From a virus, in UHGV virus genome UHGV-1961940: a DNA stretch of 20,717 nt; one strand, written 5' to 3'. Below, piece after piece: positions 1-19,053 of this stretch. The first letter of the stretch is position 1; each line of letters starts with the position of its first letter. Below the pieces are notes generated by a model. The model saw only the letters and a program-made list of their open reading frames with translations. It was not told the DNA's origin and did not search any database. The translations under genes and the position numbers were made by a program.

Positions 1-792
1 CAGGAAGAAACTGGCAATCTGAGTTTTCGCGCTGGCAATCTGGGATTTTCCATCTTCTAATTTTTTCTTTGCATCTGCAAGTTGTGTTTTCCCGTCTTCC
101 AGTTTCTTCCTGGCATCTTCTAATTGTTTCTTACCATCTTTATATTGTTTCTTTCCGTCCTTAAGTTTCTTTTCACCGTCATCCAGTTCTTTCTTCGCAT
201 CTGCAAGTTTCTCATTGGCTTCTTTTTTGCCGTCTTCCAGTTCTTTCTTTGCATCTGCAAGCTTTTCATTGGCTTCATCCACTACTTCATCATAACGGAT
301 CTGACAACGTTCTTCCTCGATTCCCTTTACGCGTTCCTGCACTCTTTCTATCAGGCTTTCATAAGCATCCGTATAACTGATCAGATTTTGTGCCCCATGA
401 ACCTGCACATAAATCTGTGTAAATACTTCCTGATCAAAATTCTCCGGGAGTACATAAGCAAACCCGTTAACTTCACCTGAACCAAGAGTTGTATTTCCAC
501 GATTATAAGATATATAAAGAGGGCTCTCACCAATACCTACAACTGTATAATCTACATTCTGCAAAAGCTTGCTGTCCCCGTCCTGCTTCAGTGTAATCTG
601 ATCTCCGACTTCGTAACTGTTATTCTCGGCAAATATATAATCCAGAAATATCTCGCCACTCTTCTCGGGAATTCTTCCTTCCATAACAGTGATCTGGTTT
701 ACTGTTTCATTCACTGATTCCACGGAGCACTTATCGCAAACCTCAACGACATTGATAGTACCATAGTATTTATAAAGAATATAGCCAACGTA
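1..792 (-). pseudogene. Fragment of an FtsX/MacB-family ABC transporter permease (periplasmic core domain plus XXXLXXG heptad-repeat coiled-coil region). It is 5'-truncated by an in-frame TGA at 793-795, and its 3' end runs off the window start. An internal ATG at 682-684 could allow expression of a truncated product.
   Basis: Translating the minus strand by hand gives ...YKYYGTINVVEVCDKCSVESVNETVNQITVMEGRIPEKSGEIFLDYIFAENNSYEVGDQITLKQDGDSKLLQNVDYTVVGIGESPLYISYNRGNTTLGSGEVNGFAYVLPENFDQEVFTQIYVQV...EANEKLADAKKELEDGKKEANEKLADAKKELDDGEKKLKDGKKQYKDGKKQLEDARKKLEDGKTQLADAKKKLEDGKSQIASAKTQIASFFL. The frame is open down to nucleotide 1. This is the architecture of the large extracellular domain of Firmicutes FtsX-like permeases with LxxG heptads. 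There is no N-terminal TM segment and no SD in front of the ATG at 684. Confidence 0.5.
12..285 (-). repeat. Imperfect intragenic tandem repeats with a 21/42-nt period (heptad units) inside the permease fragment.
   Basis: ctggcaatctg occurs at 11-21 and 32-42. (tt)ctttctt(t/c)gcatctgcaag occurs at about 61-81, 187-207 and 241-261. ccgtcttccagtt occurs at 92-104 and 230-242. These encode repeated LADAKKELEDGKK-type heptads. Confidence 0.7.
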
Positions 793-1196
793 TCAAACAG
801 GTTAACCTGGTGGTCGTTGATAGTCCCCATGCATTTAGGATCACGGAACATATCAAAATGAATACCGGATAATCTTTCCATTAGCATAAAGTCATAACTG
901 TAGCAGTTATGGCAGTTCAAAGCTGTTGGTGACCAGTCAGAATTGCCTGTAAGCCAACCTTCCAACTCCGAAAAATCTGCTATGCGAACTTCAAAATCTT
1001 TATAAAGAGTTTTCTTTGCCAGAATGAAGTTCTTAGCCTTTTCTATATCCTCCTCGGAGTAGTGTGTGCGGTCATTTAGAGGAAGGAACAGCATAAAACG
1101 GTTCTTATTCAGCTCTTTAAACAGACCGCAGTGATAATAAAGATCTGGGTCTTCCAGCAAACCGGATGACTCAAAATCGAAAGACCACATACTCAT
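711..1196 (-). CDS. Hypothetical protein, 161 aa. The last ~28 codons (711-795) overlap the permease reading frame out of frame, so the C-terminus is probably not native.
   Basis: The ORF has an AAGGAG SD (revcomp of 1205-1210) 8 nt upstream of the ATG at 1196. The C-terminal tail ...DTLAIFFINTMVLSMSLRFAISAPWNQ lies exactly over permease-like sequence read in another frame. Confidence 0.5.
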   Translation of the reverse strand: MSMWSFDFESSGLLEDPDLYYHCGLFKELNKNRFMLFLPLNDRTHYSEEDIEKAKNFILAKKTLYKDFEVRIADFSELEGWLTGNSDWSPTALNCHNCYSYDFMLMERLSGIHFDMFRDPKCMGTINDHQVNLFDTLAIFFINTMVLSMSLRFAISAPWNQ

Positions 1197-3333: not shown

Positions 3334-3466
3334 TAATTCTGCTCCTTACTACAGGCTCGTTTGCTAAGAATACAGCTTTTGCCCAGCCAATAACTGCACC
3401 ACCAGACCCGTCAAATAGACTCCACACAACACCTTTGTGGTAGTGTTCTTTGTAGATGAATTTCAA
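3323..3466 (-). CDS. Possible 47-aa small ORF (TTG start, MKFIYKEHYHKGVVWSLFDGSGGAVIGWAKAVFLANEPVVRSRINGK) overlapping the primase start by 11 nt. It may instead be a relic of a duplicated gene start.
   Basis: An AGGAGACAGC SD lies 3 nt before the TTG. The SD, start and first codons are a diverged copy of the initiation region of the 401-aa gene at 8995-9033 (MIFIYEHFKTRK versus MKFIYKEHYHKG). Confidence 0.2.
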   Translation of the reverse strand: MKFIYKEHYHKGVVWSLFDGSGGAVIGWAKAVFLANEPVVRSRINGK

Positions 3467-3479
3467 TTTGCTGTCTCCT
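3444..3479 (-). repeat. Copy A of a diverged translation-initiation cassette (AGGAGACAGC ... start ... TTCATCTAC ... GAACA). Copy B is at 9002-9032.
   Basis: On the plus strand, tgttc / gtagatgaa / gctgtctcct are shared in the same order and spacing at both loci. Confidence 0.5.
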
Positions 3480-3484
3480 AATGC

Positions 3485-3512
3485 AAAAAGCCCCACCCTT
3501 TCGGGCAGGGCC
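3485..3512 (-). terminator. Rho-independent terminator on the minus strand, immediately after the 68-aa gene stop.
   Basis: Minus-strand RNA reads GGCCCUGCCCGAAAGGGUGGGGC followed by UUUUU. This gives a 4-bp plus 3-bp GC stem with a 2x2 internal loop and a GAAA tetraloop. Confidence 0.6.
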
Positions 3513-3517
3513 TAGTG

Positions 3518-3724
3518 TTAAACCCGGATACCTATTGTATACTCGGTGGATACCAATGTCAAATCTAAATTTAAAATTTCTTGCATCTCATAATATGCGT
3601 CCAGGGTTAGATACATTTCCCCATCCTTTTCTACATACTTGTCCAAGTGCTTGAGGCATTTCGGATAACTATCAAGTGCAGCTTTCAGGCACTCAAACTC
3701 TGTGCTGTTGATGAATCCTTCCAT
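3518..3724 (-). CDS. Hypothetical protein, 68 aa.
   Basis: ORF in the leftward operon, 5 nt downstream of the preceding gene. No recognisable motifs. Confidence 0.5.
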   Translation of the reverse strand: MEGFINSTEFECLKAALDSYPKCLKHLDKYVEKDGEMYLTLDAYYEMQEILNLDLTLVSTEYTIGIRV

Positions 3725-3729
3725 CTTGG

Positions 3730-3996
3730 CTACCCGTTCTTAATGATAGCACTGTAGTGAGATTTAGCTTCCTGAATGCAATGGGTCCAAGCATCAACCT
3801 TCTCTTCGAAAAGTCCAAAGAACTTCTTTTTGGTGAGCTTCAGATTCTTTAAGTGCTTAAGCACTCGGTTGCCGATTACAGCCACATCACGAAACTTAAG
3901 AATCACTTTGTCGATATCCTCGCGACCTATTTTCACAAAACAGGCCTTACACATTTCAGGGGAGGAATAACCAACTTTCCACATAAAATCTGACAT
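3730..3996 (-). CDS. Hypothetical protein, 88 aa.
   Basis: ORF in the leftward operon; tightly spaced. An SD GGAGAAGG lies upstream of the ATG at 3996. Confidence 0.55.
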   Translation of the reverse strand: MSDFMWKVGYSSPEMCKACFVKIGREDIDKVILKFRDVAVIGNRVLKHLKNLKLTKKKFFGLFEEKVDAWTHCIQEAKSHYSAIIKNG

Positions 3997-4008
3997 ACCA
4001 CCTTCTCC

Positions 4009-4311
4009 TTATTCCTTAAAAGCTATGATATCATAGGAACTTGCAGATGATTCTGGTGAAGAATGACTCCAGTCCAGGTCATCAGAATAGTCAGCGTACT
4101 GTGCGCCACTACGCAGTTTGTATTTTACCCACTTACCTGGTGCAGGGTTTTCACCACCTTCCCATACTTCCCAGCCTTCTGGCAGGCCGTCCTGAGCGTA
4201 GTCATCCACCTCACTAATGATCTTAGGGTTTGGCACCAAGATCCCCGCAGGCTCTTCCTTCCGGATAAGTGTCCACACAGCGTATGTGTCTGAGCAGGCG
4301 CATGATAGCAA
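4009..4311 (-). CDS. Hypothetical protein, about 100 aa, with an apparent TTG start and no internal Met.
   Basis: The frame is open from 4311 to 4009 with no in-frame ATG. It contains an acidic Trp-rich motif EGWEVWEGGENPAPGKW. The start codon is uncertain. Confidence 0.45.
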   Translation of the reverse strand: MLSCACSDTYAVWTLIRKEEPAGILVPNPKIISEVDDYAQDGLPEGWEVWEGGENPAPGKWVKYKLRSGAQYADYSDDLDWSHSSPESSASSYDIIAFKE

Positions 4312-4402
4312 AGTATATCCACTATTCAGAACTTCTGCAAGCTCTTTTCAGCATCTTCCAATTTGGCTAAGTGGTATTGGATAATCTTCACACCTGTAAT
4401 CA

Positions 4403-4708
4403 TCAGAAACCTCCCACTTCTTCAGCAAATGCAGCTGCTGTCGTCGCTGCATCCAGATAGGACTCTAGTTCACGGGCTGCACGTTTGTAAATTGAGTGGC
4501 GCATATCGTTTGGCAGTTGGTGGGAGTCCACCTCTTCACCGTTGTGGTAAACATGCACATCGGTGATTTGTCTAAATCCGTAACAGTCAACATCAGAATC
4601 CCGGCACTCCGGATCTGGCAACTGAACAACTGCCTGAGCTTCCACAGTAAACATATCGTCAAGTTCGAAATCGATTTCAAAAGTGTATGGTTTATAACGT
4701 TTCATCAT
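4403..4708 (-). CDS. Hypothetical protein, 101 aa.
   Basis: ORF in the leftward operon, 13 nt downstream of the methyltransferase stop. Confidence 0.55.
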   Translation of the reverse strand: MMKRYKPYTFEIDFELDDMFTVEAQAVVQLPDPECRDSDVDCYGFRQITDVHVYHNGEEVDSHQLPNDMRHSIYKRAARELESYLDAATTAAAFAEEVGGF

Positions 4709-4721
4709 TTGATTGTACTCT

Positions 4722-6047
4722 TTATTGATCAGAATTATCTTTCGTAATTAAGGTCTGGGTAAGTTTGTAATAGCGGAAGCCACCGCCACCTTGCCAGCTT
4801 GCAGACTTAGAAATACCACCTTGATCTTCACCATCAATCACTTTTTGCAAGCGAGGGATAATATGGGTATGACAATGATCACCCAGTTCGATCAAGATCC
4901 AACGTCTTTTCATCTTGTGGGCTACAGCAGCAGTAGTTCCCGAACCGCCGAATGAATCCAATACCAAATCACCTTCTCGCGTACACATTTCGAGAATCCG
5001 CTTCAAAAGCGCTTCTGGTTTTTTTCCATTTTTGAAACTAACGCCGCCTTCATTTGCTATTCCATTCCAACTAATGTCTGTCCAAACATCAGTTATTAGT
5101 TCCGCAGGTTGCATCTCACCGTCAATTTCCAAAAGCCTGTTGGAGTAAAAGACCATTTGCCTACCATTTGCGATATAAAATCCTTCAACATCCTCATTCG
5201 GATGTACATAAACCTTATCCCTATCTTTCTTTGACTTCTCGATAGTTTCTTTTCTCTTTATTTTAGCGCCACCACCAATTGCAACAGATTGAAATACACG
5301 TTCTGCATTATCAATTGCGAATTGTGCTAATTCATCATCGAATGTATCAGGCAGTTTTTTCTTGGCTTCTTTTGCATCTTTATAGCCATTGGCCTTTGCA
5401 AACGCATCGGCAATACCGCACCACGTCCAATTTTTATAATGGTCATCCGGGTTTAATAGGTATTTGTTATATCCTGTATCATACCCTTTAGGTATATAGA
5501 TTTTGTTAAGCGGTTTCTGGGTGCGATCTTTTGCATATACAAGCAAAAAGTTTGCTGTGGAGAAAACTGTGGCTCCTGTTGCCTTAAATCCCGAAGGGGA
5601 ATTTGTGGTCATCGATATGGTATTTAACTGATTTGCACGACCAAAAATCTCGTCCATCAAAACTTTTAAATACGCCATTTCGCAATCATCTAAGTGAACG
5701 AATATTACCCCATCATCACTTAGAAGATTACGAATTATTTCTAACCTATCCCTCATTAAGCCCAGCCAAATGGAATGCTCCAGGCTATCATCGTAATGCT
5801 CAAAAGCCCTCCCGGTATTGAATGGTGGGTCTATGTAAACACACTTCACTTTGCCTGCATACTCTTGCTCTAGCGCCTTCAATGCTAATAAGTTATCTCC
5901 AAAAATCAGTTTATTATCAAAAATATCGTTTTCGGTCACTTTCTGGCTGTGGTAAGATTTGCTAGAATCTTCTAACAAAATGTGTGGCTCTAACTTTTTG
6001 CGCTCGTTTTTACCTATCCAGGTAAGTTCTAATTTGGTTTTGCTCAT
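4722..6047 (-). CDS. Site-specific DNA methyltransferase, beta class (N6-adenine/N4-cytosine; Type III Mod-like). Orphan: no restriction subunit is adjacent.
   Basis: Motif IV is VYIDPPFNTG. It precedes motif I, LVLDSFGGSGTTAAVA, which is the beta-class order seen in EcoP15I Mod. The N-terminal LELTWIGK resembles the Mod N-terminal LxWxGK. An AAGGAGAG SD is present. Confidence 0.9.
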   Translation of the reverse strand: MSKTKLELTWIGKNERKKLEPHILLEDSSKSYHSQKVTENDIFDNKLIFGDNLLALKALEQEYAGKVKCVYIDPPFNTGRAFEHYDDSLEHSIWLGLMRDRLEIIRNLLSDDGVIFVHLDDCEMAYLKVLMDEIFGRANQLNTISMTTNSPSGFKATGATVFSTANFLLVYAKDRTQKPLNKIYIPKGYDTGYNKYLLNPDDHYKNWTWCGIADAFAKANGYKDAKEAKKKLPDTFDDELAQFAIDNAERVFQSVAIGGGAKIKRKETIEKSKKDRDKVYVHPNEDVEGFYIANGRQMVFYSNRLLEIDGEMQPAELITDVWTDISWNGIANEGGVSFKNGKKPEALLKRILEMCTREGDLVLDSFGGSGTTAAVAHKMKRRWILIELGDHCHTHIIPRLQKVIDGEDQGGISKSASWQGGGGFRYYKLTQTLITKDNSDQ

Positions 6048-6074: not shown

Positions 6075-6091
6075 GGGGAGGAGGCCTCCCC
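6075..6091 (-). promoter_or_regulatory. Intercistronic RNA hairpin GGGGAGG-AGG-CCTCCCC between the 113-aa gene stop and the methyltransferase SD.
   Basis: Perfect 7-bp GC-rich stem. It has the same stem sequence and the same position (stop, hairpin, UUU, AAGGAG, ATG) as the hairpin at 1215-1239. Confidence 0.35.
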
Positions 6092-6108: not shown

Positions 6109-6450
6109 CTACTCAAGGTCTTCAGAGTCAAGCTCAAAAAGAATCAAACTGTGCATGCCTGCAGATAGATTAACACACCCTGCAACAATAAGGGTCTGAT
6201 AGTAAGGTTCAGCACCCTCAATGTCTTCGTTAAAATCCACAACAAGGTAGTCACCTTTGTTAAAGGTGTATTTGTCCGATGTAAACGCAAAACCTGCCCA
6301 GTCCCCTACTGCAGGGTCTTTATCAGTCACCTTTGTTAACAGTAGATCTTTTTCACGGGATCTTTTAGTAAAATCGTGAATCACAACATCCTTCTCTTCA
6401 GGAGTTGGATTGCCACACACGTAGTTAACTATATTTCTCCACAAACTCAT
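6109..6450 (-). CDS. Hypothetical protein, 113 aa. The start is reassigned to the internal ATG at 6450.
   Basis: The track ORF 6109..6492 would overlap the helicase by 68 nt. The ATG at 6448-6450 has a GAGGGG SD and overlaps the helicase stop by only 26 nt. Confidence 0.6.
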   Translation of the reverse strand: MSLWRNIVNYVCGNPTPEEKDVVIHDFTKRSREKDLLLTKVTDKDPAVGDWAGFAFTSDKYTFNKGDYLVVDFNEDIEGAEPYYQTLIVAGCVNLSAGMHSLILFELDSEDLE

Positions 6451-7816
6451 ACGTCCCCTCTTCGGCTCTGGTTTCAAAATCTTTCCTGACAATTTTGTCT
6501 AAGTCAGGGAATGTTGTATTGTAAAACTCTACGACTCGCGGGTCAACAATAATGTCAACTTCTCTTAGTGGACGCAACAAGTTTATTCCTTGTATTGTCT
6601 TAACCCGACTCAAAGCAACATACGTCATCCCAGGAGAGAAAGCTCCGTTCTTTCCAAGGTCCAGGTTGTAACAATCTAGCGTAAGTCCTTGACTTTTATG
6701 AGATGTTACGGCATACCCAGATTTCAGAGGAAGTTGCCTGTATGACCCAATCACTACCCTCTCTATAAACTTCTCCATCTTCCTTTCTGCAATGTTGTAT
6801 CTCTGAGATGGCTTATACTCGTTATTTTCCCACAACCTCTGCTCTATGTCAACCTGTGTTCCATCTTCAAGCTCTACCACCACCGCCTTGTTCTTAAATT
6901 TAACAATTGTGGCACGTGTTCCGTTAACATAATAAGGTACTTTGTGCGTCGGGTCAACATCGTTGGCGGTTATCATAACTTTCATGCCAATTTTCAACTT
7001 CATCTCCTGCTCAACTGGCAGGGTGGAGGGAAACTTACCCTTCATTTCACCAGTGTATACCTTCTCTGGGGCGTTGATGGCATCATAGAACCTTCTGTTC
7101 ACTTCCTCTGCTTGTTTGTTGGTGGCGCAAATTGTGAGAGCGTCTGTTGGTACACCGCCTTTGTAACAGCGAGCATTAAGTTCTGCTACAACCTCTTTTA
7201 TGCGACGACCCTCACGAACACAGTTGAGCATTGTGGCAAATCGAATAGACTCCTGTCGGAACTGGTCTATTAGGGCTATGTTGTGAAGGTCCAGCTCTTT
7301 CCAAGATTCGGTATAGCAACATAGGTCTGTGTGGTAGAAGTTGAAGTAGGCCTCCTTCTCCATAGAAGAGACAACAGGAGGTGCCTGGTAAAAATCGCCA
7401 AACAATATGACCTGTATGCCTCCGAAAGGTTTGTCATTTTTTCGAAGGAAGCGGAGTTTTCTATCCATCTCTATAAACTTATCAGCACGGATCATAGAGA
7501 TTTCATCGATAATTAGGATGGTAAATGCCTTGCTTTTCAAAGGCTTTGCTGTTTTTGCCCTTATTGCAGTCCAGTCAGACTCCATGCTCACACCTGCTGC
7601 AAGATCGAAGGTTCGGTGTGCTGTTGCTCCATTAACGTTTAAAGCGGCTACCCCTGTCGGGGCAACCGTTATGCAAGAGTCTCCATACATTGACTGGATC
7701 ATGTTGATGAGGTACGTCTTCCCACAACCTGCGGGTCCTGAAACGAAGACATTCTCCCCACTCATGATTGCAACAAGGGCAGCATCTGTGCCTACATCAT
7801 ACTGCCCTTTTTCCAT
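6425..7816 (-). CDS. SF1B DNA helicase, Dda/RecD/Pif1-like.
   Basis: Walker A is VSGPAGCGKTYL and Walker B is LIIDEISM. The C-terminal block is GYAVTSHKSQGLTLD. A GAGGAGG SD is present. The start overlaps the upstream gene's stop as TAATG. Confidence 0.85.
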   Translation of the reverse strand: MEKGQYDVGTDAALVAIMSGENVFVSGPAGCGKTYLINMIQSMYGDSCITVAPTGVAALNVNGATAHRTFDLAAGVSMESDWTAIRAKTAKPLKSKAFTILIIDEISMIRADKFIEMDRKLRFLRKNDKPFGGIQVILFGDFYQAPPVVSSMEKEAYFNFYHTDLCCYTESWKELDLHNIALIDQFRQESIRFATMLNCVREGRRIKEVVAELNARCYKGGVPTDALTICATNKQAEEVNRRFYDAINAPEKVYTGEMKGKFPSTLPVEQEMKLKIGMKVMITANDVDPTHKVPYYVNGTRATIVKFKNKAVVVELEDGTQVDIEQRLWENNEYKPSQRYNIAERKMEKFIERVVIGSYRQLPLKSGYAVTSHKSQGLTLDCYNLDLGKNGAFSPGMTYVALSRVKTIQGINLLRPLREVDIIVDPRVVEFYNTTFPDLDKIVRKDFETRAEEGTYEFVEKYS

Positions 7817-9021
7817 TACGCCTCCTCGTAGATAATGTCGATGATGTTACCATCACGGTCAACTACGTATTCAATCGGATCGCCATCTTTGCGTGATTCC
7901 GGTGCTGCTACGATTTCGTAGCGGCATGCACGGCACTTAGCACTGTTGTGTTGGTATGGCACACTAACCACATCCGCAGGGTCAACCATAACCATCATTA
8001 CAGTGCCATAGCCCGCTGCATACTCTTTGCTGGCGCAGTGCAGGCCATAAGAACACGCAGCTTCCGGATCATCTTCTACAAAGTTACGAGGCATGGACAC
8101 AAAAGCACCCTGGTATTGTGGAACTTTACCGCTGTGCCAATCCACCCACCTGCTCCCGTTAAACTGAACCCCCTTATAGCAAATGATTCGACCATCTTCT
8201 GCAACCTGGATGTCATTAGCCTGCATGAAATCGTAGAGCATGTTCACAGATTTTGCAGACGGGTTGCGTAGCAGACGGACAAGGAATTTAACATATCGGT
8301 CGTCCAGTGTTCCATCTACATAATCTTCCTCAATTTTCTTTGCAATGGTGGATCGCATCTCTACACCGTAGTAGTAGAGCTTACCATCTTTCATGATCAG
8401 GTTGTCTGCAAGTGTGGTGAACTCATTCTTGCGTTCCAGCCAGACAAGGATTTCACCAATTGCCTCATCATATTCCTGAACAGAAATATGGTCGAAGACT
8501 TTCTGGTAAACTTCCTCACTTTCGCTGCGGCGAATTTCAAAAATGCCTTCGTTGCAGGTGATCTGGAGGAGTTCCCCGCAAATAACTACCAAAGGCTCGA
8601 TGCTTCGAGACTGTTGCTGAGACACACTGCTCACTACTTCCAGCACCGGATCTTTGACTTCTACTAAAGGTTCTTCTGACTTGATTGCTACCCCAGTGAA
8701 CCCCACACCGTGAACAACACACAGTGGGTATACCACGCCCCAACGTTTAACGGAACCTTCACCTGAATCTAAGATCATGGCGTACTTACCGTTGTCTTCC
8801 AGTCCGTAGCGGAATAAACGGGCCTCTTCGCGGGTTTCAAAATCCTCACGGGTATAGCAGACACTGTCTCGGTCAGGATCAAACAGCTCTGGGGCACCTA
8901 CTGCCAGTGTCCATGTTGTAGTACCTTTCTCAATAGCACATGTGAAACCCTTCTTCTCAAGTTCTGCACGGCGGTCGCGTGCTTCTTTACGAGTTTTGAA
9001 ATGTTCGTAGATGAAAATCAT
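7816..9021 (-). CDS. Hypothetical protein, 401 aa. The conserved-looking C-terminal block is of unknown family.
   Basis: Long ORF with a TAAGGAGACAGC SD. The C-terminal region is ...GLHCASKEYAAGYGTVMMVMVDPADVVSVPYQHNSAKCRACRYE.... I could not assign a domain from sequence alone. Confidence 0.7.
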   Translation of the reverse strand: MIFIYEHFKTRKEARDRRAELEKKGFTCAIEKGTTTWTLAVGAPELFDPDRDSVCYTREDFETREEARLFRYGLEDNGKYAMILDSGEGSVKRWGVVYPLCVVHGVGFTGVAIKSEEPLVEVKDPVLEVVSSVSQQQSRSIEPLVVICGELLQITCNEGIFEIRRSESEEVYQKVFDHISVQEYDEAIGEILVWLERKNEFTTLADNLIMKDGKLYYYGVEMRSTIAKKIEEDYVDGTLDDRYVKFLVRLLRNPSAKSVNMLYDFMQANDIQVAEDGRIICYKGVQFNGSRWVDWHSGKVPQYQGAFVSMPRNFVEDDPEAACSYGLHCASKEYAAGYGTVMMVMVDPADVVSVPYQHNSAKCRACRYEIVAAPESRKDGDPIEYVVDRDGNIIDIIYEEA

Positions 9022-9032
9022 AGCTGTCTCCT
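9002..9032 (-). repeat. Copy B of the translation-initiation cassette (see 3444-3479).
   Basis: AGGAGACAGC-TATG-ATT-TTCATCTAC-GAACA on the minus strand matches AGGAGACAGC-AAATTG-AAA-TTCATCTAC-AAAGAACA at copy A. Confidence 0.5.
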
Positions 9033-11014
9033 TATTTGGTGTTATTCTTTGCGTCGATCAGTTCACGGTATTCAATCATAGCAGGAGTGTCCCAATATTT
9101 CAAGCCCACATGCTTCAAAAGTGGATATTTCTTTTCCAATCTTGCAATATAGGCCTTCCCGCACTTGACTCGGTTGGCGATTAAGATTTTGGCACGATGA
9201 TTTAGCTCACTGTGCTTCCACGCGGTGTTACCTTCCCACTTGTGGAAATGTGGCCGATAATTTCCAAAATCTTGCATGGGGATAATTTTCCCTAATTGTC
9301 TATACAGGCTGTCATATGAAGTTTCATTTGCTGCGCGAGTCAGTAAGAATTTCCAAGCATCCTCTTTCAACAAATGTTCCACATTCTTCTCTGTAACATA
9401 CTGGCAATCAGGATCAGTCCAAAGCAGACGAGATTCTGATACCAAGTACAGATCTTCACCTTCAGGAATCTGGAGTGCAGCACGCACACGGTCATAATTT
9501 TGCTGGTAGATGTTACTCAGCTGTCCCAGCCAACAACTTCCACGTTGGATATCACCCTCATAAGGAATGCAGTGCTTAATCTTCTTGAACTCTGCCTTAG
9601 TAATACGTTCACGACGGAAGTAACCATCCTTCTCAAGCTTTTTAACCCAATAACCTGGCTCGTAATGAGTTTTTGTTTCACCTTTCTTCGCAGGTCGGCG
9701 AGGGAGCTCTGATAACAATTTGACAGTATCTGCAAAGAACGGATGGTGTGCCGCCTCTTTAAACTCTTTCACCAGATCCGTGTTCCGGCAATAGAAAACG
9801 TTGCGTCCGGTGATTTCGCTTAAGTAGTTACACTTATTTCGGTTATATTTACCATCTCCGTCGTTAAATACAAGGTATACACCTCGTAAGAACTCCGACT
9901 TTCCGTAACGAGCATAGCCTATGCGGCCTTTATTTAAGCCGCCAGCGAAAATTTCACAATCGCCTAAGTCGCCAAGCCCTGTTTCTTCCCAACGGTTCCA
10001 CATAAAGTTTTTGCCGAAGATGTGTCCGAACACTCCACTATTCTTCATCATTTCACGTGCTTCTGCGGAGGTTTTTGCCGTCTCCAGTTCTGCAATAACT
10101 TCTGCCCCGCGAAGACGTATACCTTCTTTGACAAAGGCCTCCAGGCGATCCTGGAATCCACCGTCGTCATGGCCCTCTATGGTCCATTCACGCCCAGGGT
10201 TAATATTGCAATCCCCAATAGGAATTTCCACGCAGATTGCAGGGTAATCGGTCAATGTCTCCAGGAACTTGGAGCGGTAAGGTTGGTGACCCATCACAAC
10301 ACGGCTCTCATCAGAACTGGTATAACCTTTCAGGATGGTCATTTTCCAGCCATCCTTCTCGTAATGATACTGTGCCTCAACCTTGTCACCTTCTAACATC
10401 TTACTGGTCATAGGATCGGTGACGATGAACGGAAACTTCGCATAGCGTAAGCACGATGCAATAGCAGTGCAATATTTCAGGACATGCTCTTTCTTAACAT
10501 GGAACTGAACTTTTACCCCGTTGTGCTCTTCAGTCTTCCGCTCACGGATCTTGGTAACGTTTGGGATACCCTGATCCAAGAACAATAGATATGTGCTTTC
10601 AACACCATTGTGCACACTGATCACATCGAAAGTGTCCACCATACTGAACGGAGCCTTTGAACCAACACCTTTATTACCTACCAGAGCGTTGCTGTTGCGC
10701 TTGGTTGACTCCCCGAGATTCATGAAAGTGTTGCGGACCATCTCTTCTGACATGCCCAATCCAACGTCCTGCACAAAGAAGTATGGTTCAAGGTCTGTAG
10801 GAGAGTGAATGATGATCGGTACATCACCCCGTCCAGACTCAACATGGGAGTCCACAGCATTGAAGATTGGTTCACGGCAGCTTGCCAGCACCTTATCTTC
10901 GTAAATCCCTTTAATGATTAGCCCAAAAGTCTCTTTGTTCAGAGAAATTGAGCCCCTGGTGACCTCCATATTTCCGGTCAGCACTGCTTTAGTTTCATTA
11001 CTGTTTACAATCAT
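9032..11014 (-). CDS. GHKL (Bergerat-fold; HATPase_c-type) ATPase domain protein, 660 aa, with a large uncharacterised C-terminal region.
   Basis: N box is REPIFNAVDS (ExxxNAxD), G1 box is DVGLGM and G2 box is GNKGVGSKAPF. An AAGGAG SD is present. The start overlaps the hydrolase stop as ATGA. Confidence 0.65.
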   Translation of the reverse strand: MIVNSNETKAVLTGNMEVTRGSISLNKETFGLIIKGIYEDKVLASCREPIFNAVDSHVESGRGDVPIIIHSPTDLEPYFFVQDVGLGMSEEMVRNTFMNLGESTKRNSNALVGNKGVGSKAPFSMVDTFDVISVHNGVESTYLLFLDQGIPNVTKIRERKTEEHNGVKVQFHVKKEHVLKYCTAIASCLRYAKFPFIVTDPMTSKMLEGDKVEAQYHYEKDGWKMTILKGYTSSDESRVVMGHQPYRSKFLETLTDYPAICVEIPIGDCNINPGREWTIEGHDDGGFQDRLEAFVKEGIRLRGAEVIAELETAKTSAEAREMMKNSGVFGHIFGKNFMWNRWEETGLGDLGDCEIFAGGLNKGRIGYARYGKSEFLRGVYLVFNDGDGKYNRNKCNYLSEITGRNVFYCRNTDLVKEFKEAAHHPFFADTVKLLSELPRRPAKKGETKTHYEPGYWVKKLEKDGYFRRERITKAEFKKIKHCIPYEGDIQRGSCWLGQLSNIYQQNYDRVRAALQIPEGEDLYLVSESRLLWTDPDCQYVTEKNVEHLLKEDAWKFLLTRAANETSYDSLYRQLGKIIPMQDFGNYRPHFHKWEGNTAWKHSELNHRAKILIANRVKCGKAYIARLEKKYPLLKHVGLKYWDTPAMIEYRELIDAKNNTK

Positions 11015-11511
11015 TTATTGCGCTCCTTGTAGTAGATATGGCTCCCGAATTGAGTTGTCCTCTGCATCTTTTTTGCCCATTTCGGTCGTACTTTGGTTGT
11101 ATGGTAGTGTGTTGCTCCACCTGTTATGTCCATAGCCATGTATGCAACATGGTTGTTATTATAGACCTTTATAAGCATCTTTGCAAGACTTTTAGCGTGA
11201 TCCCATGAATCTTTTTCTGTCACCTTAAAAGTTTTGCCGTGGTTTGTCCACGAAAACTGGTTAGGTTGGTAGACAATCTTTCTTATAGTGTCTGGGTATT
11301 TAGGGTGGGATTTCCTGTTTAGTGTGGCAAACCCAGATGCCAGCATACCCATCGTGCCATCTCCTCTAGCTTCCCTGTAGATATTGCATGCCAGAATGTT
11401 TTCCTTAGTATCTGATGGCTTGCAAGTATGATATACTTTTTGTTTTGGTGCTGCAACAACAGGCAGCGATAAAAGTGCGCTCAAAATAATAGCAAAGATC
11501 TTAATTTTCAC
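11011..11511 (-). CDS. Secreted cell-wall hydrolase of the SleB/CwlJ (Hydrolase_2) family, with an N-terminal signal peptide and a GTG start.
   Basis: The N-terminus MKIKIFAIILSALLSLPVVAAP is a typical signal peptide. The family block is ACNIYREARGDG...YPDTIRKIVYQPNQFSW. A GGAG SD lies 7 nt before the GTG. Confidence 0.75.
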   Translation of the reverse strand: MKIKIFAIILSALLSLPVVAAPKQKVYHTCKPSDTKENILACNIYREARGDGTMGMLASGFATLNRKSHPKYPDTIRKIVYQPNQFSWTNHGKTFKVTEKDSWDHAKSLAKMLIKVYNNNHVAYMAMDITGGATHYHTTKVRPKWAKKMQRTTQFGSHIYYKERNK

Positions 11512-11520
11512 AATGACTCC

Positions 11521-11548
11521 AAATAGAAAATCCCCGCCGAAGCGGGGG
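11521..11548 (-). terminator. Rho-independent terminator on the minus strand between the 126-aa gene and the hydrolase gene.
   Basis: Minus-strand RNA reads CCCCGC-UUCG-GCGGGG, a 6-bp GC stem with a UUCG tetraloop, followed by AUUUUCUAUUU. Confidence 0.6.
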
Positions 11549-11951: not shown

Positions 11952-13136
11952 TTAAGCTTTAGCCAAAATGGCGCTAAACTCTTCACCAAACTCTTTTACA
12001 ATCTTCATCAGGTTTGGGTATGCTTTGATCAGCTGAGCAACAATCTTGTCACGCCCTTTACCGATAAGCAAGGCATTTCCTAAGGCATTAGGTTTCATCA
12101 TCGCCATAAAGACTGAGAATACAAAATCTCGGTTCTCGTCCTTGAAGTTTTCCCAAAGGAAATCGAGGAAGTTTGCCACGCAGCTGACAAGATCTTCGTC
12201 TGAGATACTTGCATTTTCCATCATATTGCGAATAGCGATACAACCTTCAGATCCAAGAATCCACAAAATGTCTGGCTGCTTAGGACCTACGTATTCTTTG
12301 CAGCCACCTGCCATAATCCGACCGATTTCCGGTAAATTACGTTTCTTGGTGTGGTAAGTCCAGATCTCTACCGCTGCAGTGTGACCAATAGCACCTTGTA
12401 GAAGAACACGGGCCATAGCGTCAGAAATAATACCGCTGTCAAAATCGTGCAAGATGTCAGATGCAGCAACCCAAGATCGTGGTGTGGCAAAAGATGGACA
12501 ATTAATCTCAGCCATAGCCTCATAATTATCAATAGCTGATGGAACTCTTTTCAGATACCCAATTACAGAGGAGTGAACCCCGTTGAGGAATGCGTAGTCC
12601 TCAATAAACACCTCTGCATTGCTTGTAACCTCTACAATGATAAAACGGTTAGCCAGAGGGGCTTCGAGCGCCGAAAGAACCGCACCATCTGTAGAACGGT
12701 TACCCGCAGCCACAAAAACAGAACCCTTAGGGAATGCATAGGTGCCGCACTTGTGGTCAAGCATAATTTGCATTGCAACCTTTTGCAGGTAGTTATCTGC
12801 ATGAGTGAGCTCATCCAGAAAGATAATTCCGCTCCAGTCAGGATCCGCAGGCCAAAATTCTGGAATTGCAAACACTGTACGTGTAGTTCCATCCGCTTCT
12901 ACAGGGATAGGTAGCCCAGATAAGTCGGCAGGATCTTTATCTGACAGTCGCACGTCAACAAGGTTGTCATCTCGCTCACCGAACATATTATCAGCGATCT
13001 GCTTCATCACCTGGCTTTTACCCACACCCATTGGTCCCAAAATTAGGACAGATCGGCTATGACGTTGGGCAAACTGAATAATAGCTGGCAACTCACGGAC
13101 AGTGATTTGACCACTTTCGAATACGTTTCTTGACAT
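11952..13136 (-). CDS. MoxR/CbbQ/NorQ/CobS-like AAA+ ATPase (AAA_5 type).
   Basis: Walker A is LGPMGVGKSQ and Walker B is IIFLDELTHAD. The sensor/arginine-finger region is VFVAAGNRS...APLANRF. The start overlaps the upstream stop as TAATG. Confidence 0.85.
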   Translation of the reverse strand: MSRNVFESGQITVRELPAIIQFAQRHSRSVLILGPMGVGKSQVMKQIADNMFGERDDNLVDVRLSDKDPADLSGLPIPVEADGTTRTVFAIPEFWPADPDWSGIIFLDELTHADNYLQKVAMQIMLDHKCGTYAFPKGSVFVAAGNRSTDGAVLSALEAPLANRFIIVEVTSNAEVFIEDYAFLNGVHSSVIGYLKRVPSAIDNYEAMAEINCPSFATPRSWVAASDILHDFDSGIISDAMARVLLQGAIGHTAAVEIWTYHTKKRNLPEIGRIMAGGCKEYVGPKQPDILWILGSEGCIAIRNMMENASISDEDLVSCVANFLDFLWENFKDENRDFVFSVFMAMMKPNALGNALLIGKGRDKIVAQLIKAYPNLMKIVKEFGEEFSAILAKA

Positions 13137-14738: not shown

Positions 14739-15634
14739 ACCCTCGCATAAATTAAACTTGTATCAGTATACTTCTTTAATGGGTAAATATCCTGTCCATA
14801 GATGCAATCATTAAACACCTCATCTACCCAAAGGCTACACTTATATCCCATCATTTCTAAAACACCCATCTCTTCTTCGGTAAACTTATCACCGCTCTTG
14901 CAAGATGTCAATACCTCATTCTGAACTCTTGCTACCTCGAAGCGGTTATTGGCAATATCGCTATTGGCGATCAAATACTCACCTAGAGGGTGTGCGGCAT
15001 TAAAGATGCACAGTGGACGGCTGACGTAATAGTCTCCAGGTGTATAAAAATTGTTGAGGTCTTTCACTAGAACATTCTTATCAGTCACTTCATTTATAAC
15101 ATCATGCATATCGCACATCTTTATATGTTTGAGGATTCCATCCCCCATCACAAAATAAAAACTTGCTGAGACACTTTCGGCATAGATCTTACTAGATCCG
15201 TTGTAGTTGTATTTTACTCGGATGCTAACGGGGGTTTTTCCTGTCGCGTTAGCCATCATCCAAAGAAATGGCAGCTCATACTTCTCCTCTGAGGAAACAA
15301 AAGGTGAGGTAGCCAGAGATCGAAAACCTCCAGAGAAGTTGAAAGTTACAGAACCGCTCCGGCGGTATGATACCGCGTATTCTACTTTTATATCGACATA
15401 CCCATTGGAATAGGTGTGTCCTTCATTATCTAAATATGTCCACTTATCAGACCCAGATACCAATCTACGCTCAATAACCTTCATCACTATAGGAATTAAT
15501 GGGTTGGTACAAACCGCTTTTGAAGTAGCTTTATCATCTAAAGCCTCGTAAATTGCAGAAAGGATGTCCCCAGCTGAAAGATTGGTTGTTATGTCCTGTT
15601 TCCACCGCGTACTAAAACTGTTAAGATTTGCCAT
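14735..15634 (-). CDS. Hypothetical protein, 299 aa. It is the first gene of the leftward operon.
   Basis: An AGGAG SD lies 9 nt upstream of the ATG at 15634. The gene is immediately downstream of the predicted leftward promoter. Confidence 0.65.
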   Translation of the reverse strand: MANLNSFSTRWKQDITTNLSAGDILSAIYEALDDKATSKAVCTNPLIPIVMKVIERRLVSGSDKWTYLDNEGHTYSNGYVDIKVEYAVSYRRSGSVTFNFSGGFRSLATSPFVSSEEKYELPFLWMMANATGKTPVSIRVKYNYNGSSKIYAESVSASFYFVMGDGILKHIKMCDMHDVINEVTDKNVLVKDLNNFYTPGDYYVSRPLCIFNAAHPLGEYLIANSDIANNRFEVARVQNEVLTSCKSGDKFTEEEMGVLEMMGYKCSLWVDEVFNDCIYGQDIYPLKKYTDTSLIYARV

Positions 15635-15674
15635 AAGTAAGTGCTCCTATGTTAGTTTTCTTTCGAATGGGTGC

Positions 15675-15703
15675 ACTATATTGTGGAGTTAGAGTAAAGT
15701 CAA
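15675..15703 (-). promoter_or_regulatory. Sigma70/SigA-type promoter for the leftward operon: TTGACT, 17 nt, TATAGT.
   Basis: On the minus strand, the -35 TTGACT is the revcomp of 15698-15703, the spacer is 17 nt, and the -10 TATAGT is the revcomp of 15675-15680. It lies about 40 nt upstream of the ATG at 15634. Confidence 0.5.
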
Positions 15704-15721
15704 CACGTTTTTGATGTTGAC
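15699..15721. promoter_or_regulatory. Candidate operator: perfect inverted repeat GTCAACA-N9-TGTTGAC. Each arm contains a -35 hexamer of one of the two divergent promoters.
   Basis: GTCAACA is at 15699-15705 and TGTTGAC at 15715-15721. The left arm overlaps the minus-strand TTGACT. The right arm overlaps the plus-strand TTGACA at 15717-15722. Confidence 0.4.
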
Positions 15722-16758: not shown

Positions 16759-16775
16759 AGGGGCCAATGGCCCCT
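16759..16775 (+). promoter_or_regulatory. GC-rich hairpin AGGGGCC-AAT-GGCCCCT just after the Endo VII-like gene stop. It sequesters the ATG at 16767.
   Basis: 7-bp stem with a 3-nt loop, followed by TCTGGAGTTTTAATG. It may act as an attenuator or terminator and argues for the downstream start at 16788. Confidence 0.3.
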
Positions 16776-18248
16776 TCTGGAGTTTTAATGGATAGCAGAA
16801 GTTCAGAAATCATTGCCTCGCAGAAAGATGATGCCCTGAGAATGTTGCAGGCTGCACGTATGTATCTCCTTGAAAAGCTGCCGTTTTATGGCACACTACT
16901 GTCAGGGTTGCAGTTCGTAGAAAACCACACATGGTGCTCCACCATGGCAACCGACCATAAACGCATCTATTACAGTCCTGAGTTCATTATGGGATTGGCT
17001 GATGAACGCAAGGCTATTCTTAAGGCTTCTCTAACTGACGAGCAGTTTGAGATGGCTGAAGTTTTCTATTCTCCAAAATCTGTGAAAGAGGTGGCCTTCC
17101 TTCTGTCACATGAGGTGGGGCATATTATCTGTGATCACCTAGTCCGTGGTAAAAGCTTTGAGCCGGAACTGTTCAATATTGCTTGTGATCACGTTATCAA
17201 CACAGGCCTTGTGGTTGACTTTAGCAAACCTCCTTGTGTTTTCTTCCCGAAGGGGAAAAGCACTACGTTCATGAAAGGTAAGCCTTTTGGCTTCTTAGCC
17301 AGCTGCTACTGCGACATGAAGTTTCATGGATGGATTGCTGAGAACGTTTATGCAGTTCTTGATAAGCAAAGAGATCAGAATAACGGTAAAAGTAAGAACG
17401 GTAAAGGTGAGAACTCTCAAAGTGATAAGCGACAAACCGATGATCACATGAGTGGGAACGGTGGCACCAGTGATAATCTTGGAAAGGCTATGGGGTATGA
17501 TCAGCCACAACCTGTAATCAGCCAATCTGATAAAGATCAGGCCATGCAGGACTCTGGTGATATGCTGGAGGCAGCAATGCAAGCGTCCGGAGGCCGTTGC
17601 CCTGAGGCGGTGCGTGAGTTTGTCAAGAACAGAGGTAAGCCTGTAATCAACTATATAGACATCATTAAGCAACGTATGTTGTCTAAAAGAAAGGCCGAAC
17701 TGACCTACAGAAAACCTGGTCGCCGATCTGGGTCTTTGACCAGCACAATGCGAAAAGTTGGGGCTATAAACAAGAACCAGCACGTTATTGTTCCTGGTCG
17801 TAATCCGGAAAACACTATAGATATTGTGGTGGCTTTAGACGTTTCTGGCTCGATCTCTCAAAGAACTTTAAAGAAAATGTTCAATGAAATCACCGGATTG
17901 TGCAATCTGTATAAAGAGTTTAAGGTTACAATGTTCTGTTGGTCAACTGAGGTTGGAGAGGTTAAAGTATACACTCGCGGCAACATAGACGAGATGGTCA
18001 ACTATGAGGTCCACTCAACATGGGGCACAACAGCTGCTTGCGTGTTCGAGTATCTGGATGCCAACATACCTAATGCAAAAGATGTCATCGTCCTGACCGA
18101 CCTATACTTTGAGCATAACTTTGAACAAAAGGTTGTTGACAACAAGTGGAAAAAGTACGATACTCTATGGGTCCTCACTGAGGGGTATAATAAAAATTAT
18201 ATCCCGAGCTTTGGGAAAACTGTGGAATTAATCGAGTACGCTAAGTAA
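16767..18248 (+). CDS. Zincin-like putative metallopeptidase domain (HExxH) fused to a von Willebrand factor A (VWA) domain. Probable partner of the MoxR-like ATPase. The ATG at 16788 (MDSRSSEI, GGAG SD) is an alternative start.
   Basis: The N-terminal domain contains HEVGHIICDH. The MIDAS motif is IVVALDVSGSIS (DxSGS). This matches DUF2201_N plus VWA (CoxE/NorD/CobT-like) architecture. Confidence 0.8.
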   Translation: MAPSGVLMDSRSSEIIASQKDDALRMLQAARMYLLEKLPFYGTLLSGLQFVENHTWCSTMATDHKRIYYSPEFIMGLADERKAILKASLTDEQFEMAEVFYSPKSVKEVAFLLSHEVGHIICDHLVRGKSFEPELFNIACDHVINTGLVVDFSKPPCVFFPKGKSTTFMKGKPFGFLASCYCDMKFHGWIAENVYAVLDKQRDQNNGKSKNGKGENSQSDKRQTDDHMSGNGGTSDNLGKAMGYDQPQPVISQSDKDQAMQDSGDMLEAAMQASGGRCPEAVREFVKNRGKPVINYIDIIKQRMLSKRKAELTYRKPGRRSGSLTSTMRKVGAINKNQHVIVPGRNPENTIDIVVALDVSGSISQRTLKKMFNEITGLCNLYKEFKVTMFCWSTEVGEVKVYTRGNIDEMVNYEVHSTWGTTAACVFEYLDANIPNAKDVIVLTDLYFEHNFEQKVVDNKWKKYDTLWVLTEGYNKNYIPSFGKTVELIEYAK

Positions 18249-18263
18249 GAGAGGAGGTTATTT

Positions 18264-18527
18264 ATGGCAACAGAGTTAAAATTTGCATCAAACCGTAAAA
18301 CTAAGAAGTATCTGTCCTCAGTAGCTCCAGGCACTGTGGTGATGTTTGTTGATGAACTTGGGGATGTGAATACAGCACTTGTTGTAAAATCACATCCTGC
18401 AAACATATATGTTGGGGTATTTGACCTGTTCAGAAAGGTGTTTGTAGAACTGCCTCACAGTTTGGTTGTTACAGAAATGGATGCCTGCATAGAAATTCTT
18501 GGCGAAGTTATGGTGGAGGAACAATAA
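18264..18527 (+). CDS. Small protein, 87 aa. Paralog 1 of a four-member tandem family.
   Basis: MATELKFASNRKTKKYLSSVAPGTVV...VTEMDACIEILGE. A GAGGAGG SD is present. It aligns clearly with paralog 2. Confidence 0.65.
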   Translation: MATELKFASNRKTKKYLSSVAPGTVVMFVDELGDVNTALVVKSHPANIYVGVFDLFRKVFVELPHSLVVTEMDACIEILGEVMVEEQ

Positions 18528-18790
18528 TGGCTACCAGCATTGTATTCAATTCTAAGGTGAAGAACAAAAAGCGTGCAGACAGTTTTCCGTGTGGGACCGT
18601 GGTAAGTTGCGACGGAGACGGCATTCAAAACATAGTTATGATTGTCAAAACAGGAGAACATTGTGTGTGGGGGTTCGATTTAGAAAATAATGAGTTGTAC
18701 GATCTGCCGCCAAACATGAAAGTTACAGAGCTTGACACCAAAATTACCATCCTTGGAGAGACAAGCTATTCAAAAGAAGGAGGAGAATAA
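18527..18790 (+). CDS. Small protein, 87 aa. Paralog 2.
   Basis: MATSIVFNSKVKNKKRADSFPCGTVV...VTELDTKITILGE. The start is TAATG-coupled to paralog 1. Confidence 0.65.
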   Translation: MATSIVFNSKVKNKKRADSFPCGTVVSCDGDGIQNIVMIVKTGEHCVWGFDLENNELYDLPPNMKVTELDTKITILGETSYSKEGGE

Positions 18791-19053
18791 TGACCACAAA
18801 AATCACTATCGCAGAACCGAAAGCTAACACTCAGCCTATCGAAAAGTTTAAGTACGGTGAGGTGGTAACATTCACACCAGATAATGAAGATGCTAAGATT
18901 TTCGCAATGGTCACAGCTGAGTGGATGTGTGACAACACCACACAGGTTCTGCGTTTTGACACCTATCTTACCGATGAAATCAGGAACGACAAGATTGTGA
19001 CTGGTGTGGATACTGAGATTGTTTTCTACAAGAGCTTTTTAGAGGGTTTCTGA
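18790..19053 (+). CDS. Small protein, 87 aa. Paralog 3 (more diverged).
   Basis: MTTKITIAEPKANTQPIEKFKYGEVVTF...KIFAMVTAE. TAATG-coupled. GAAGGAGGAG upstream. Confidence 0.6.
   Translation: MTTKITIAEPKANTQPIEKFKYGEVVTFTPDNEDAKIFAMVTAEWMCDNTTQVLRFDTYLTDEIRNDKIVTGVDTEIVFYKSFLEGF

Follow-up and report, generated by a model that had tools for sequence, protein, structure and literature searches.

The rII locus of a Vequintavirus in the virus genome UHGV-1961940: rIIA and rIIB beside a lineage-specific Pif1-family helicase gene

The UHGV virus genome UHGV-1961940 was analyzed as a single strand of 20,717 nucleotides (here called the window, meaning this whole stretch), which carries on its minus strand consecutive genes for a 660-amino-acid GHKL ATPase, a 401-amino-acid protein and a superfamily 1B (SF1B) helicase, transcribed in that order. 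Do these genes form an undescribed DNA-handling or counter-defence trio, as an earlier note on the sequence had proposed, an ordinary phage topoisomerase, or something long familiar? Open reading frames (ORFs) of 400–660 codons at 44% G+C lie far above chance expectation, and the first two are here identified as rIIA and rIIB, the genes made famous by Benzer's fine-structure mapping and by the triplet code. We hold with high confidence that positions 7816–11014 of the minus strand are the rII locus of a Vequintavirus, rIIA followed by rIIB, and that this locus constitutes a counter-defence module that is conditionally required on hosts with Rex-type abortive infection.

The 660-residue protein is identified by homology as RIIA. 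It matches the PHROG family phrog_612 (RIIA) over residues 1–656 with an E value of 2.6e-123. BLASTP aligns its first 198 residues with T4 RIIA (E 1e-21, 28% identity over 198 amino acids), and a 27-sequence profile used in hhalign places residues 1–307 on T4 RIIA 1–311 with a probability of 99.9% and an E value of 9e-38. Features by which the family is recognized are present, among them homology to the T4 and curated RIIA proteins and a location immediately upstream of rIIB. The 401-residue protein is likewise identified as RIIB, matching phrog_609 (RIIB) at E 2.4e-60 and T4 RIIB at E 2e-38 (BLASTP, 36% identity over 204 amino acids). The latter alignment takes in a block, GLHCASKEYAAGYGTVMMVMVDPADVVSVP (GLHCASKEY...), that occupies residues 326–355 and that had been singled out in the earlier note as the conserved-looking C-terminal part of an unknown protein; the block is real and belongs to the RIIB core, whereas the protein itself has a known family. 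Consistent with this, PF26926 is recorded on all homologues, and a Foldseek search of BFVD with an AlphaFold model of RIIB (predicted local distance difference test score, pLDDT, 73.6) returned 31 hits at E ≤ 1e-3, of which all the named ones are RIIB-type except for one labelled “transposase”. RIIB as a family was found by tblastn in 2,777 of 50,697 phage records, or about 5%.

The region belongs to Vequintavirus, the rV5-like myoviruses of E. coli, with 99.0% DNA identity to Escherichia phage ime and 98.0% to phage EdH4 by megablast. The RIIA proteins of the window and EdH4 share 99.5% of their amino acids and the RIIB proteins 97.8%, and the 401-residue protein is 100% identical to its counterpart in phage Murica. 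GenBank relatives with 96–99% DNA identity annotate the three genes as “RIIA protector from prophage-induced early lysis”, “rIIB protector” and “putative helicase”. The description of the locus as uncharacterised has consequently to be given up: it is already known, annotated as a classical rII locus and tested against RexAB as a near-identical pair in EdH4, and does not constitute a new kind of system.

What activity might RIIA possess? Members of this family have an N-terminal GHKL ATPase domain followed by a variable C-terminal region (PMC7824862), and the corresponding divisions of the window protein are listed in Table 1. Across 27 homologues there is no variation in the residues of the Bergerat N box (E48, N52, D55), the G1 box (D83xG85xG87) or the G2 box (G113..G116xG118), which confirms that these boxes are intact, as had been remarked from the sequence. 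An alignment further shows that the Bergerat boxes and the Arg275–Glu276 pair of the second domain are conserved across six very distant phage families, and because of this invariance RIIA is probably an active, clamp-like ATPase. The approximately 450 residues beyond the ATPase had been thought to lack any recognizable domain; there is indeed no TOPRIM domain, and nothing matches residues 310–660, but a second, GHL-type domain at approximately residues 190–310 had been overlooked. The C-terminal half was matched by only 10 of 1.84 billion representatives and, as judged from this search, is confined to this phage lineage.

RIIB combines a core domain with N-terminal repeats that are specific to its Vequintavirinae-like versions. 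Within the core, residues C323, G326, L327, H328, P348, D350, K362, R364 and Y368 are invariant in the alignment of the same six distant families. Two observations link this protein to RIIA. Phage RB43 has a natural RIIA–RIIB fusion of 1,049 amino acids (BFVD Q56C47, found as a Foldseek match), and RIIA residues 26–181 and RIIB residues 132–375 match opposite ends of the phrog_609 profile, which has a length of 1055. Because of the fusion and these opposite-end matches, RIIA and RIIB would be expected to form a complex.

The function of the pair can be approached through EdH4. In this phage, as in T4, MM02, SUSP1 and N4, knock-down of RIIA or RIIB by CRISPRi-ART lowers the efficiency of plating only on hosts with lambda RexAB (Adler 2025, PMC11879866). 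T4 rIIA and rIIB are similarly dispensable unless the host expresses lambda RexAB, and T4 transposon data agree with this. Because the EdH4 proteins are nearly identical to those of the window, the anti-Rex phenotype can be transferred to the window pair with high confidence by orthology. The suggestion in the earlier note of a role in counter-defence or superinfection exclusion was thus well aimed, as the EdH4 orthologues counter RexAB. RIIA/B homologues have also been flagged as counters to other defences, and the pair can itself be a target: T6 RIIB triggers a CARD/gasdermin system of Lysobacter, and rIIB mutants that escape this system become sensitive to RexAB (PMC10312443). PADLOC defence-system models gave no match for RIIB, only chance-level values for RIIA (E approximately 0.006–0.008), and only generic RecD-like P-loop matches for the helicase.

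Could protection from Rex be a side effect of a more general activity, with RIIA and RIIB acting mainly in lysis timing or membrane integrity? Database labels such as “RIIA/RIIB lysis inhibitor” and “membrane integrity protector” reflect this thought, and it is in keeping with the coupling of rIIA to a gene for a secreted, SleB-like cell-wall hydrolase, with the toxicity of RIIB for E. coli when it is expressed alone (PMC10312443), and with weak SPOR-like signals in the N-terminal repeats of RIIB. These SPOR signals stay below threshold, however, and the SPOR-domain reading of the repeats was rejected; nor is a membrane-spanning segment predicted in either RIIA or RIIB, for which the maximum 19-residue hydropathy is 0.96 and 1.69, respectively. 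A general role is also at odds with the lack of any effect of the knock-downs in five phages, EdH4 included, on Rex-free hosts, and with the non-essential nature of the T4 genes where RexAB is missing. We consider this explanation improbable, and counter-defence against Rex-type systems is preferred as the principal role of the locus.

A mechanism can be proposed along the following lines. RIIA would be a GHL/MORC-type ATPase, consisting of a Bergerat domain and an S5-like domain, in which Arg275–Glu276 may sense the bound nucleotide, and it would probably cycle as an ATP-dependent dimeric clamp. The fast-evolving C-terminal half may fit RIIA to a lineage-specific target. RIIB would be the physical partner of RIIA through its universal core with the C-x2-G-L-H motif, as suggested by their fusion in RB43-type phages. 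The resulting complex may prevent or reverse the activation of the membrane-depolarising switch formed by RexA and RexB, of which RexA is a DNA-binding, RdgC-like dimer, and by extension may counter further defences directed at the membrane. RIIB would in turn be open to detection by host systems of other kinds, CARD/gasdermin among them. The helicase gene is counted with the adjacent replication cluster of primase-helicase and DNA polymerase and is a neighbour of rIIA and rIIB within one apparent transcription unit, which also takes in the SleB-like hydrolase gene upstream and a gene of 113 codons downstream.

Several points weigh against this account as a whole. The anti-Rex phenotype is carried over from an orthologue of 98–99.5% identity and does not come from the window sequence, and the ATP-driven dimerisation, the RIIA–RIIB complex and its action on RexA or RexB are steps that we infer. 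The PDB contains no structure of RIIA or RIIB, and neither RIIA residues 310–660 nor the RIIB core has a fold match that suggests an activity. A literature search for the molecular mechanism of RIIA and RIIB found none, and published accounts call it unclear. In addition, the helicase keeps its place in all 16 Vequintavirinae-like metagenomic loci and in ime and EdH4, and in the window its start codon overlaps the end of rIIB, which leaves room for a lineage-specific functional link between rII and the helicase. PDB sequence searches with RIIA and RIIB yielded only chance-level matches (E > 0.05).

A GHKL ATPase in a phage might be expected to be a topoisomerase subunit, and the pair could on this basis be regarded as a type II topoisomerase that has diverged, RIIA being its B and RIIB its A subunit. 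The GHKL ATPase and transducer domains that such a B subunit would need are present in RIIA, but they are equally like those of Hsp90, MutL and MORC and do not discriminate. Neither protein has a TOPRIM, gyrase B or topoisomerase VI match in Pfam, NCBIfam or PHROGs, the BLASTP comparison of RIIA with T4 gp39 gives E 0.92, and RIIB does not have the 5Y-CAP/winged-helix makeup of a partner subunit of the GyrA, gp52 or Spo11 type. Furthermore, topoisomerase II subunits have genes of their own in phages with rIIAB (gp39/60/52 in T4, and likewise in kaaroe and PhaxI). The topoisomerase reading was rejected on these grounds and is given next to no weight; the earlier note had itself doubted it, and the homologies that would have spoken for it, TOPRIM and an A subunit, were looked for and are not there.

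There remains the question of whether the helicase completes a trio with rIIA and rIIB. The 463-residue protein is by homology a Pif1-family SF1B helicase, closer to Pif1 than to T4 Dda. It matches the Pfam family PIF1 (PF05970) at E 1.1e-32 with 113.9 bits, where the cutoff is 25.9; it aligns over its full length with Pif1-family entries of the PDB (8bns, E 1.3e-64; Bacteroides Pif1 5ftb, E 2e-59; 6s3e, E 4e-53); and it retains an intact Walker A motif, GPAGCGKT, as well as the later helicase motifs. The broad family phrog_325, named “Dda-like helicase”, is also matched (E 7e-112), whereas the match to T4 Dda itself is weak (BLASTP E 5e-6, 27% identity over only 172 amino acids). Of the designations “SF1B” and “Dda-like” used in the earlier note, the first is accurate and the second fits less well than Pif1, given E values of 1e-64 to 1e-53 for Pif1 proteins against 5e-6 for Dda; the window helicase and Dda share a superfamily and are not demonstrably orthologues. 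At its 3' end (6425–6452) the helicase gene differs from those of ime and EdH4, as it encodes 463 amino acids ending in EEGTYEFVEKYS where theirs encode 456 ending in EEGDV, which points to a shift of reading frame close to the stop codon and makes for a longer overlap with the 113-codon gene.

The co-occurrence of the three genes was examined by a pattern-based locus search of IMG/VR, which reached only Vequintavirinae-like relatives, and distant lineages were sampled by tblastn of GenBank phages and from annotated regions. Nine other lineages were included: T4, Krischvirus, Felixounavirus, Kuttervirus, Luzseptimavirus (N4-like), the Streptomyces phage genus Wakandavirus, Rhodococcus phage Dorin, and Vibrio phages F100 and K444. 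rIIA precedes rIIB in all ten lineages examined, and they are immediate neighbours except in two cases: Krischvirus kaaroe has an ORF of 132 nucleotides between them, and the linear T4 record has one of the genes at each end. Only in the Vequintavirinae-like genomes (16/16 metagenomic loci, ime and EdH4) is rIIB followed by the helicase, and no SF1B helicase homologue was found within 5 kb of rIIAB in the nine other lineages. Because the order of rIIA and rIIB holds in all ten lineages and the helicase is near them in one only, the conserved functional unit is the rIIA–rIIB pair and the helicase is a lineage-specific neighbour. The idea of a gene trio, or DNA-handling module, does not fit this distribution.

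A unit of three might still be imagined within Vequintavirinae, in which the RIIA clamp, RIIB and the Pif1-type helicase together act on replication or recombination intermediates, for example by hiding or resolving DNA structures that are detected by sensors such as RexA. The order rIIA–rIIB–helicase is held in the 16 loci, ime and EdH4 down to approximately 35–40% identity of RIIA and RIIB, the rIIB stop overlaps the helicase start, and GHL/MORC ATPases are often associated with DNA, all of which would suit such a unit. Against it stand the nine lineages without a neighbouring helicase and the fact that one related locus, L014, has a gene for 227 amino acids inserted between rIIB and the helicase gene. 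In L014 and another relative, L007, the helicase is moreover interrupted inside its Walker A motif by an intein-like insertion of approximately 330 residues (GPGG|C...TGN|CGKT or |SGKS). These insertions and the extra gene lie at 9189–11558 in L007 and at 9032–9715 and 9717–12002 in L014. Gene overlaps, too, tie in the hydrolase gene and the 113-codon gene. The helicase gene adjoins the replication cluster, relatives having DNA polymerase and primase-helicase within a few genes of it, and it shows higher conservation than the rII genes do. In related loci, identity is 35–52% for RIIA and RIIB and 47–63% for the helicase, with MoxR at 73% in the closer group, and the lower conservation of RIIA and RIIB would fit an arms-race signature beside a replication gene. 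A three-gene unit is accordingly judged unlikely, slightly more so than the lysis or membrane role, and the rIIA–rIIB pair with the helicase as neighbour is preferred.

Just as slight a chance is given to a more speculative combination, in which rIIAB, the helicase and the secreted SleB-like hydrolase would cooperate in Vequintavirinae and their relatives and for that reason have become fixed in one operon, or in which the C-x2-G-L-H core of RIIB would be catalytic or metal-binding. If there were such cooperation, the C-terminal half of RIIA and the N-terminal repeats of RIIB would serve as docking parts for the helicase or for the cell envelope, and the rII mechanism would be linked to the processing of those replication or recombination intermediates that DNA-binding triggers such as RexA sense.

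Table 1. Positions in the window of the rII genes, the domains of their products and the neighbouring elements.
Feature	Position	Strand	Basis and remarks
rIIA, 660 amino acids	9032–11014	minus	ORF scan
RIIA Bergerat-fold (GHKL) ATP-binding domain, residues ~26–190	10445–10939	minus	
RIIA second (S5-like/transducer-type) domain, residues ~191–310	10085–10444	minus	invariant R275-E276 (“PSRE”)
RIIA variable C-terminal half, residues ~311–660	9035–10084	minus	lineage-restricted
rIIB, 401 amino acids	7816–9021	minus	ORF scan
RIIB conserved core domain, residues ~165–375	7897–8529	minus	C323-x2-G-L-H328, P348xD350, K362xR364, Y368
RIIB two tandem small beta-alpha-beta-beta repeats, residues 3–102	8716–9015	minus	specific to Vequintavirinae-like RIIB
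Pif1-family SF1B helicase, 463 amino acids	6425–7816	minus	ORF scan; co-transcribed neighbour
SleB/CwlJ-like cell-wall hydrolase	11011–11511	minus	Pfam Hydrolase_2, E 2e-19; first gene of the apparent transcription unit
Conserved hypothetical gene, 113 amino acids	6109–6450	minus	phrog_11869, E 3.2e-78; last gene of the apparent unit
Terminator-like GC hairpin and T run	11532–11547	minus	consensus scan; just upstream of the hydrolase gene; pattern match only
Palindromic GC hairpin, GGGGAGGAGGCCTCCCC	6075–6091	called on plus	between the 113-amino-acid gene and a methyltransferase gene; pattern match only

The earlier note had described the three genes as translationally coupled. The three ORFs, a TAATG overlap and a gap of 10 nucleotides are all present: the rIIA stop codon TAA is followed by the 10 nucleotides GGAGACAGCT and the rIIB ATG, and TAATG at 7816 joins the rIIB stop to the helicase start, with the Shine-Dalgarno sequence GAGGAGG just 5' of it. 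On one side of the three genes, the hydrolase stop overlaps the rIIA start in ATGA at 11011–11014, and on the other, the 113-codon gene, which begins with an ATG at 6450 preceded by GAGGGG, overlaps the 3' end of the helicase gene by 26 nucleotides. Because the hydrolase gene and the 113-codon gene overlap their neighbours as well, the coupling is a matter of general genome compaction and not a mark of three genes in particular. The start of the 113-codon gene was placed within a longer, TTG-started ORF, at residue 15 of which the phrog_11869 match begins, and the gene is annotated in phages ime and EdH4. The hydrolase has a signal-peptide-like N-terminus (MKIKIFAIILSALLSLPVVAAP), with its hydropathy maximum at residues 3–21. 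The order SleB–rIIA–rIIB–helicase is found in all related loci that extend far enough upstream, except L006–L009, which have no SleB match. The two hairpins apparently bracket a five-gene unit that runs from the hydrolase gene to the 113-codon gene, and in EdH4 the one ahead of the hydrolase gene carries the annotation of a putative terminator. Promoter and terminator scans gave counts that equal the shuffled expectation (21 versus 20.5; 11 versus 9.1).

Further observations concern the remainder of the window. Its megablast alignment to Vequintavirus begins at base 781, and the approximately 780 bases to the left are unrelated to any Vequintavirus. They hold a minus-strand open frame (1–792, 264 amino acids) that runs off the end and has coiled-coil repeats of the KLADAKKELEDGKK type; it has no match in Pfam, its tblastn relatives are limited to human-faecal “Bacteriophage sp.” and fragments of Listeria and Enterococcus phages (29–38% identity, E down to 2e-36), and relatives of the coiled-coil fragment in a phage database are Firmicutes-associated records only. 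The left end cuts the phage DNA polymerase gene to an ORF of 161 amino acids (711–1196, minus strand), and its junction near 781 has the look of chimerism in the assembly or of a splice in the window. The region between the genes for the primase-helicase and a Mod-like methylase (3334–4721) is variable and approximately 626 bp shorter than in ime; it holds four small ORFs (68–101 amino acids), and its counterpart in ime consists of three small genes and one of 765 bp for a “site-specific DNA methylase”. The Mod-like enzyme, an N6-adenine DNA methyltransferase of type III, is encoded at 4722–6047 on the minus strand (E 3.5e-202 for the PADLOC model MTase_III and 9e-43 for Pfam N6_N4_Mtase). It stands alone, with no Res-like gene seen beside it in the list of ORFs, and is presumably an anti-restriction self-methylase. 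A MoxR-like AAA ATPase (11952–13136, minus; phrog_1297, E 2e-110) is separated by a divergent promoter region near 15634–15711 from a DUF2201 metallopeptidase-like/VWA protein (16767–18248, plus; Pfam E 4e-28 and 3e-11), called “anti-sigma factor” in some relatives. Three paralogous genes of 87 codons follow head to tail on the plus strand within 18264–19053 (18264–18527, 18527–18790 and 18790–19053), with overlapping stop and start codons and 22–38% pairwise identity; they are hypothetical in relatives.

The correct labelling of this locus averts its being recorded as a novel defence or counter-defence trio, or as a topoisomerase. It also yields material for work on the mechanism of the rII proteins: RIIA has both domains of the GHL/MORC ATPase module, the second of them with an invariant Arg-Glu pair, the RIIB core has a universally conserved C-x2-GLH motif and no known fold, and the natural fusion, a by-product of the search, supports the idea of a complex.

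How does the locus compare with systems already described? Bacterial Pif1, and more distantly T4 Dda and RecD2, are the closest known relatives of the helicase, which lacks accessory domains. Next to the GHL/MORC ATPases (Hsp90/TRAP1, GyrB/ParE, MutL, MORC2/3, SMCHD1 and topoisomerase VI-B), RIIA shows 10–16% identity with no subfamily clearly closest. Several features known from these ATPases are missing from RIIA, namely a TOPRIM domain, the endonuclease and C-terminal dimerisation domains of MutL, the C-domain of Hsp90, a CW domain and a coiled-coil domain, and the C-terminal 350 residues of RIIA are unique to the phage lineage. T4 topoisomerase II (gp39/gp60/gp52) shares neither similarity nor a TOPRIM domain with RIIA, RIIB is unrelated to gp52-type subunits, and phages hold both gene sets side by side. 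With T4 rIIA and rIIB, the window pair shares the two families, their order, identical Bergerat motifs, homology over the N-terminal 300 or so residues of RIIA, and the RIIB core with its C-x2-GLH motif. It differs from T4 in the C-terminal half of RIIA (approximately residues 310–660), which cannot be aligned with that of T4, in the two extra N-terminal beta-alpha-beta-beta repeats of RIIB, and in the helicase gene after rIIB, since T4 has none there and its dda lies approximately 7 kb beyond rIIA. A near-identical system is that of EdH4 (Vequintavirus murica), from which the window departs by three substitutions in RIIA, nine in RIIB and the longer end of its helicase, and with which it shares both gene order and junctions.

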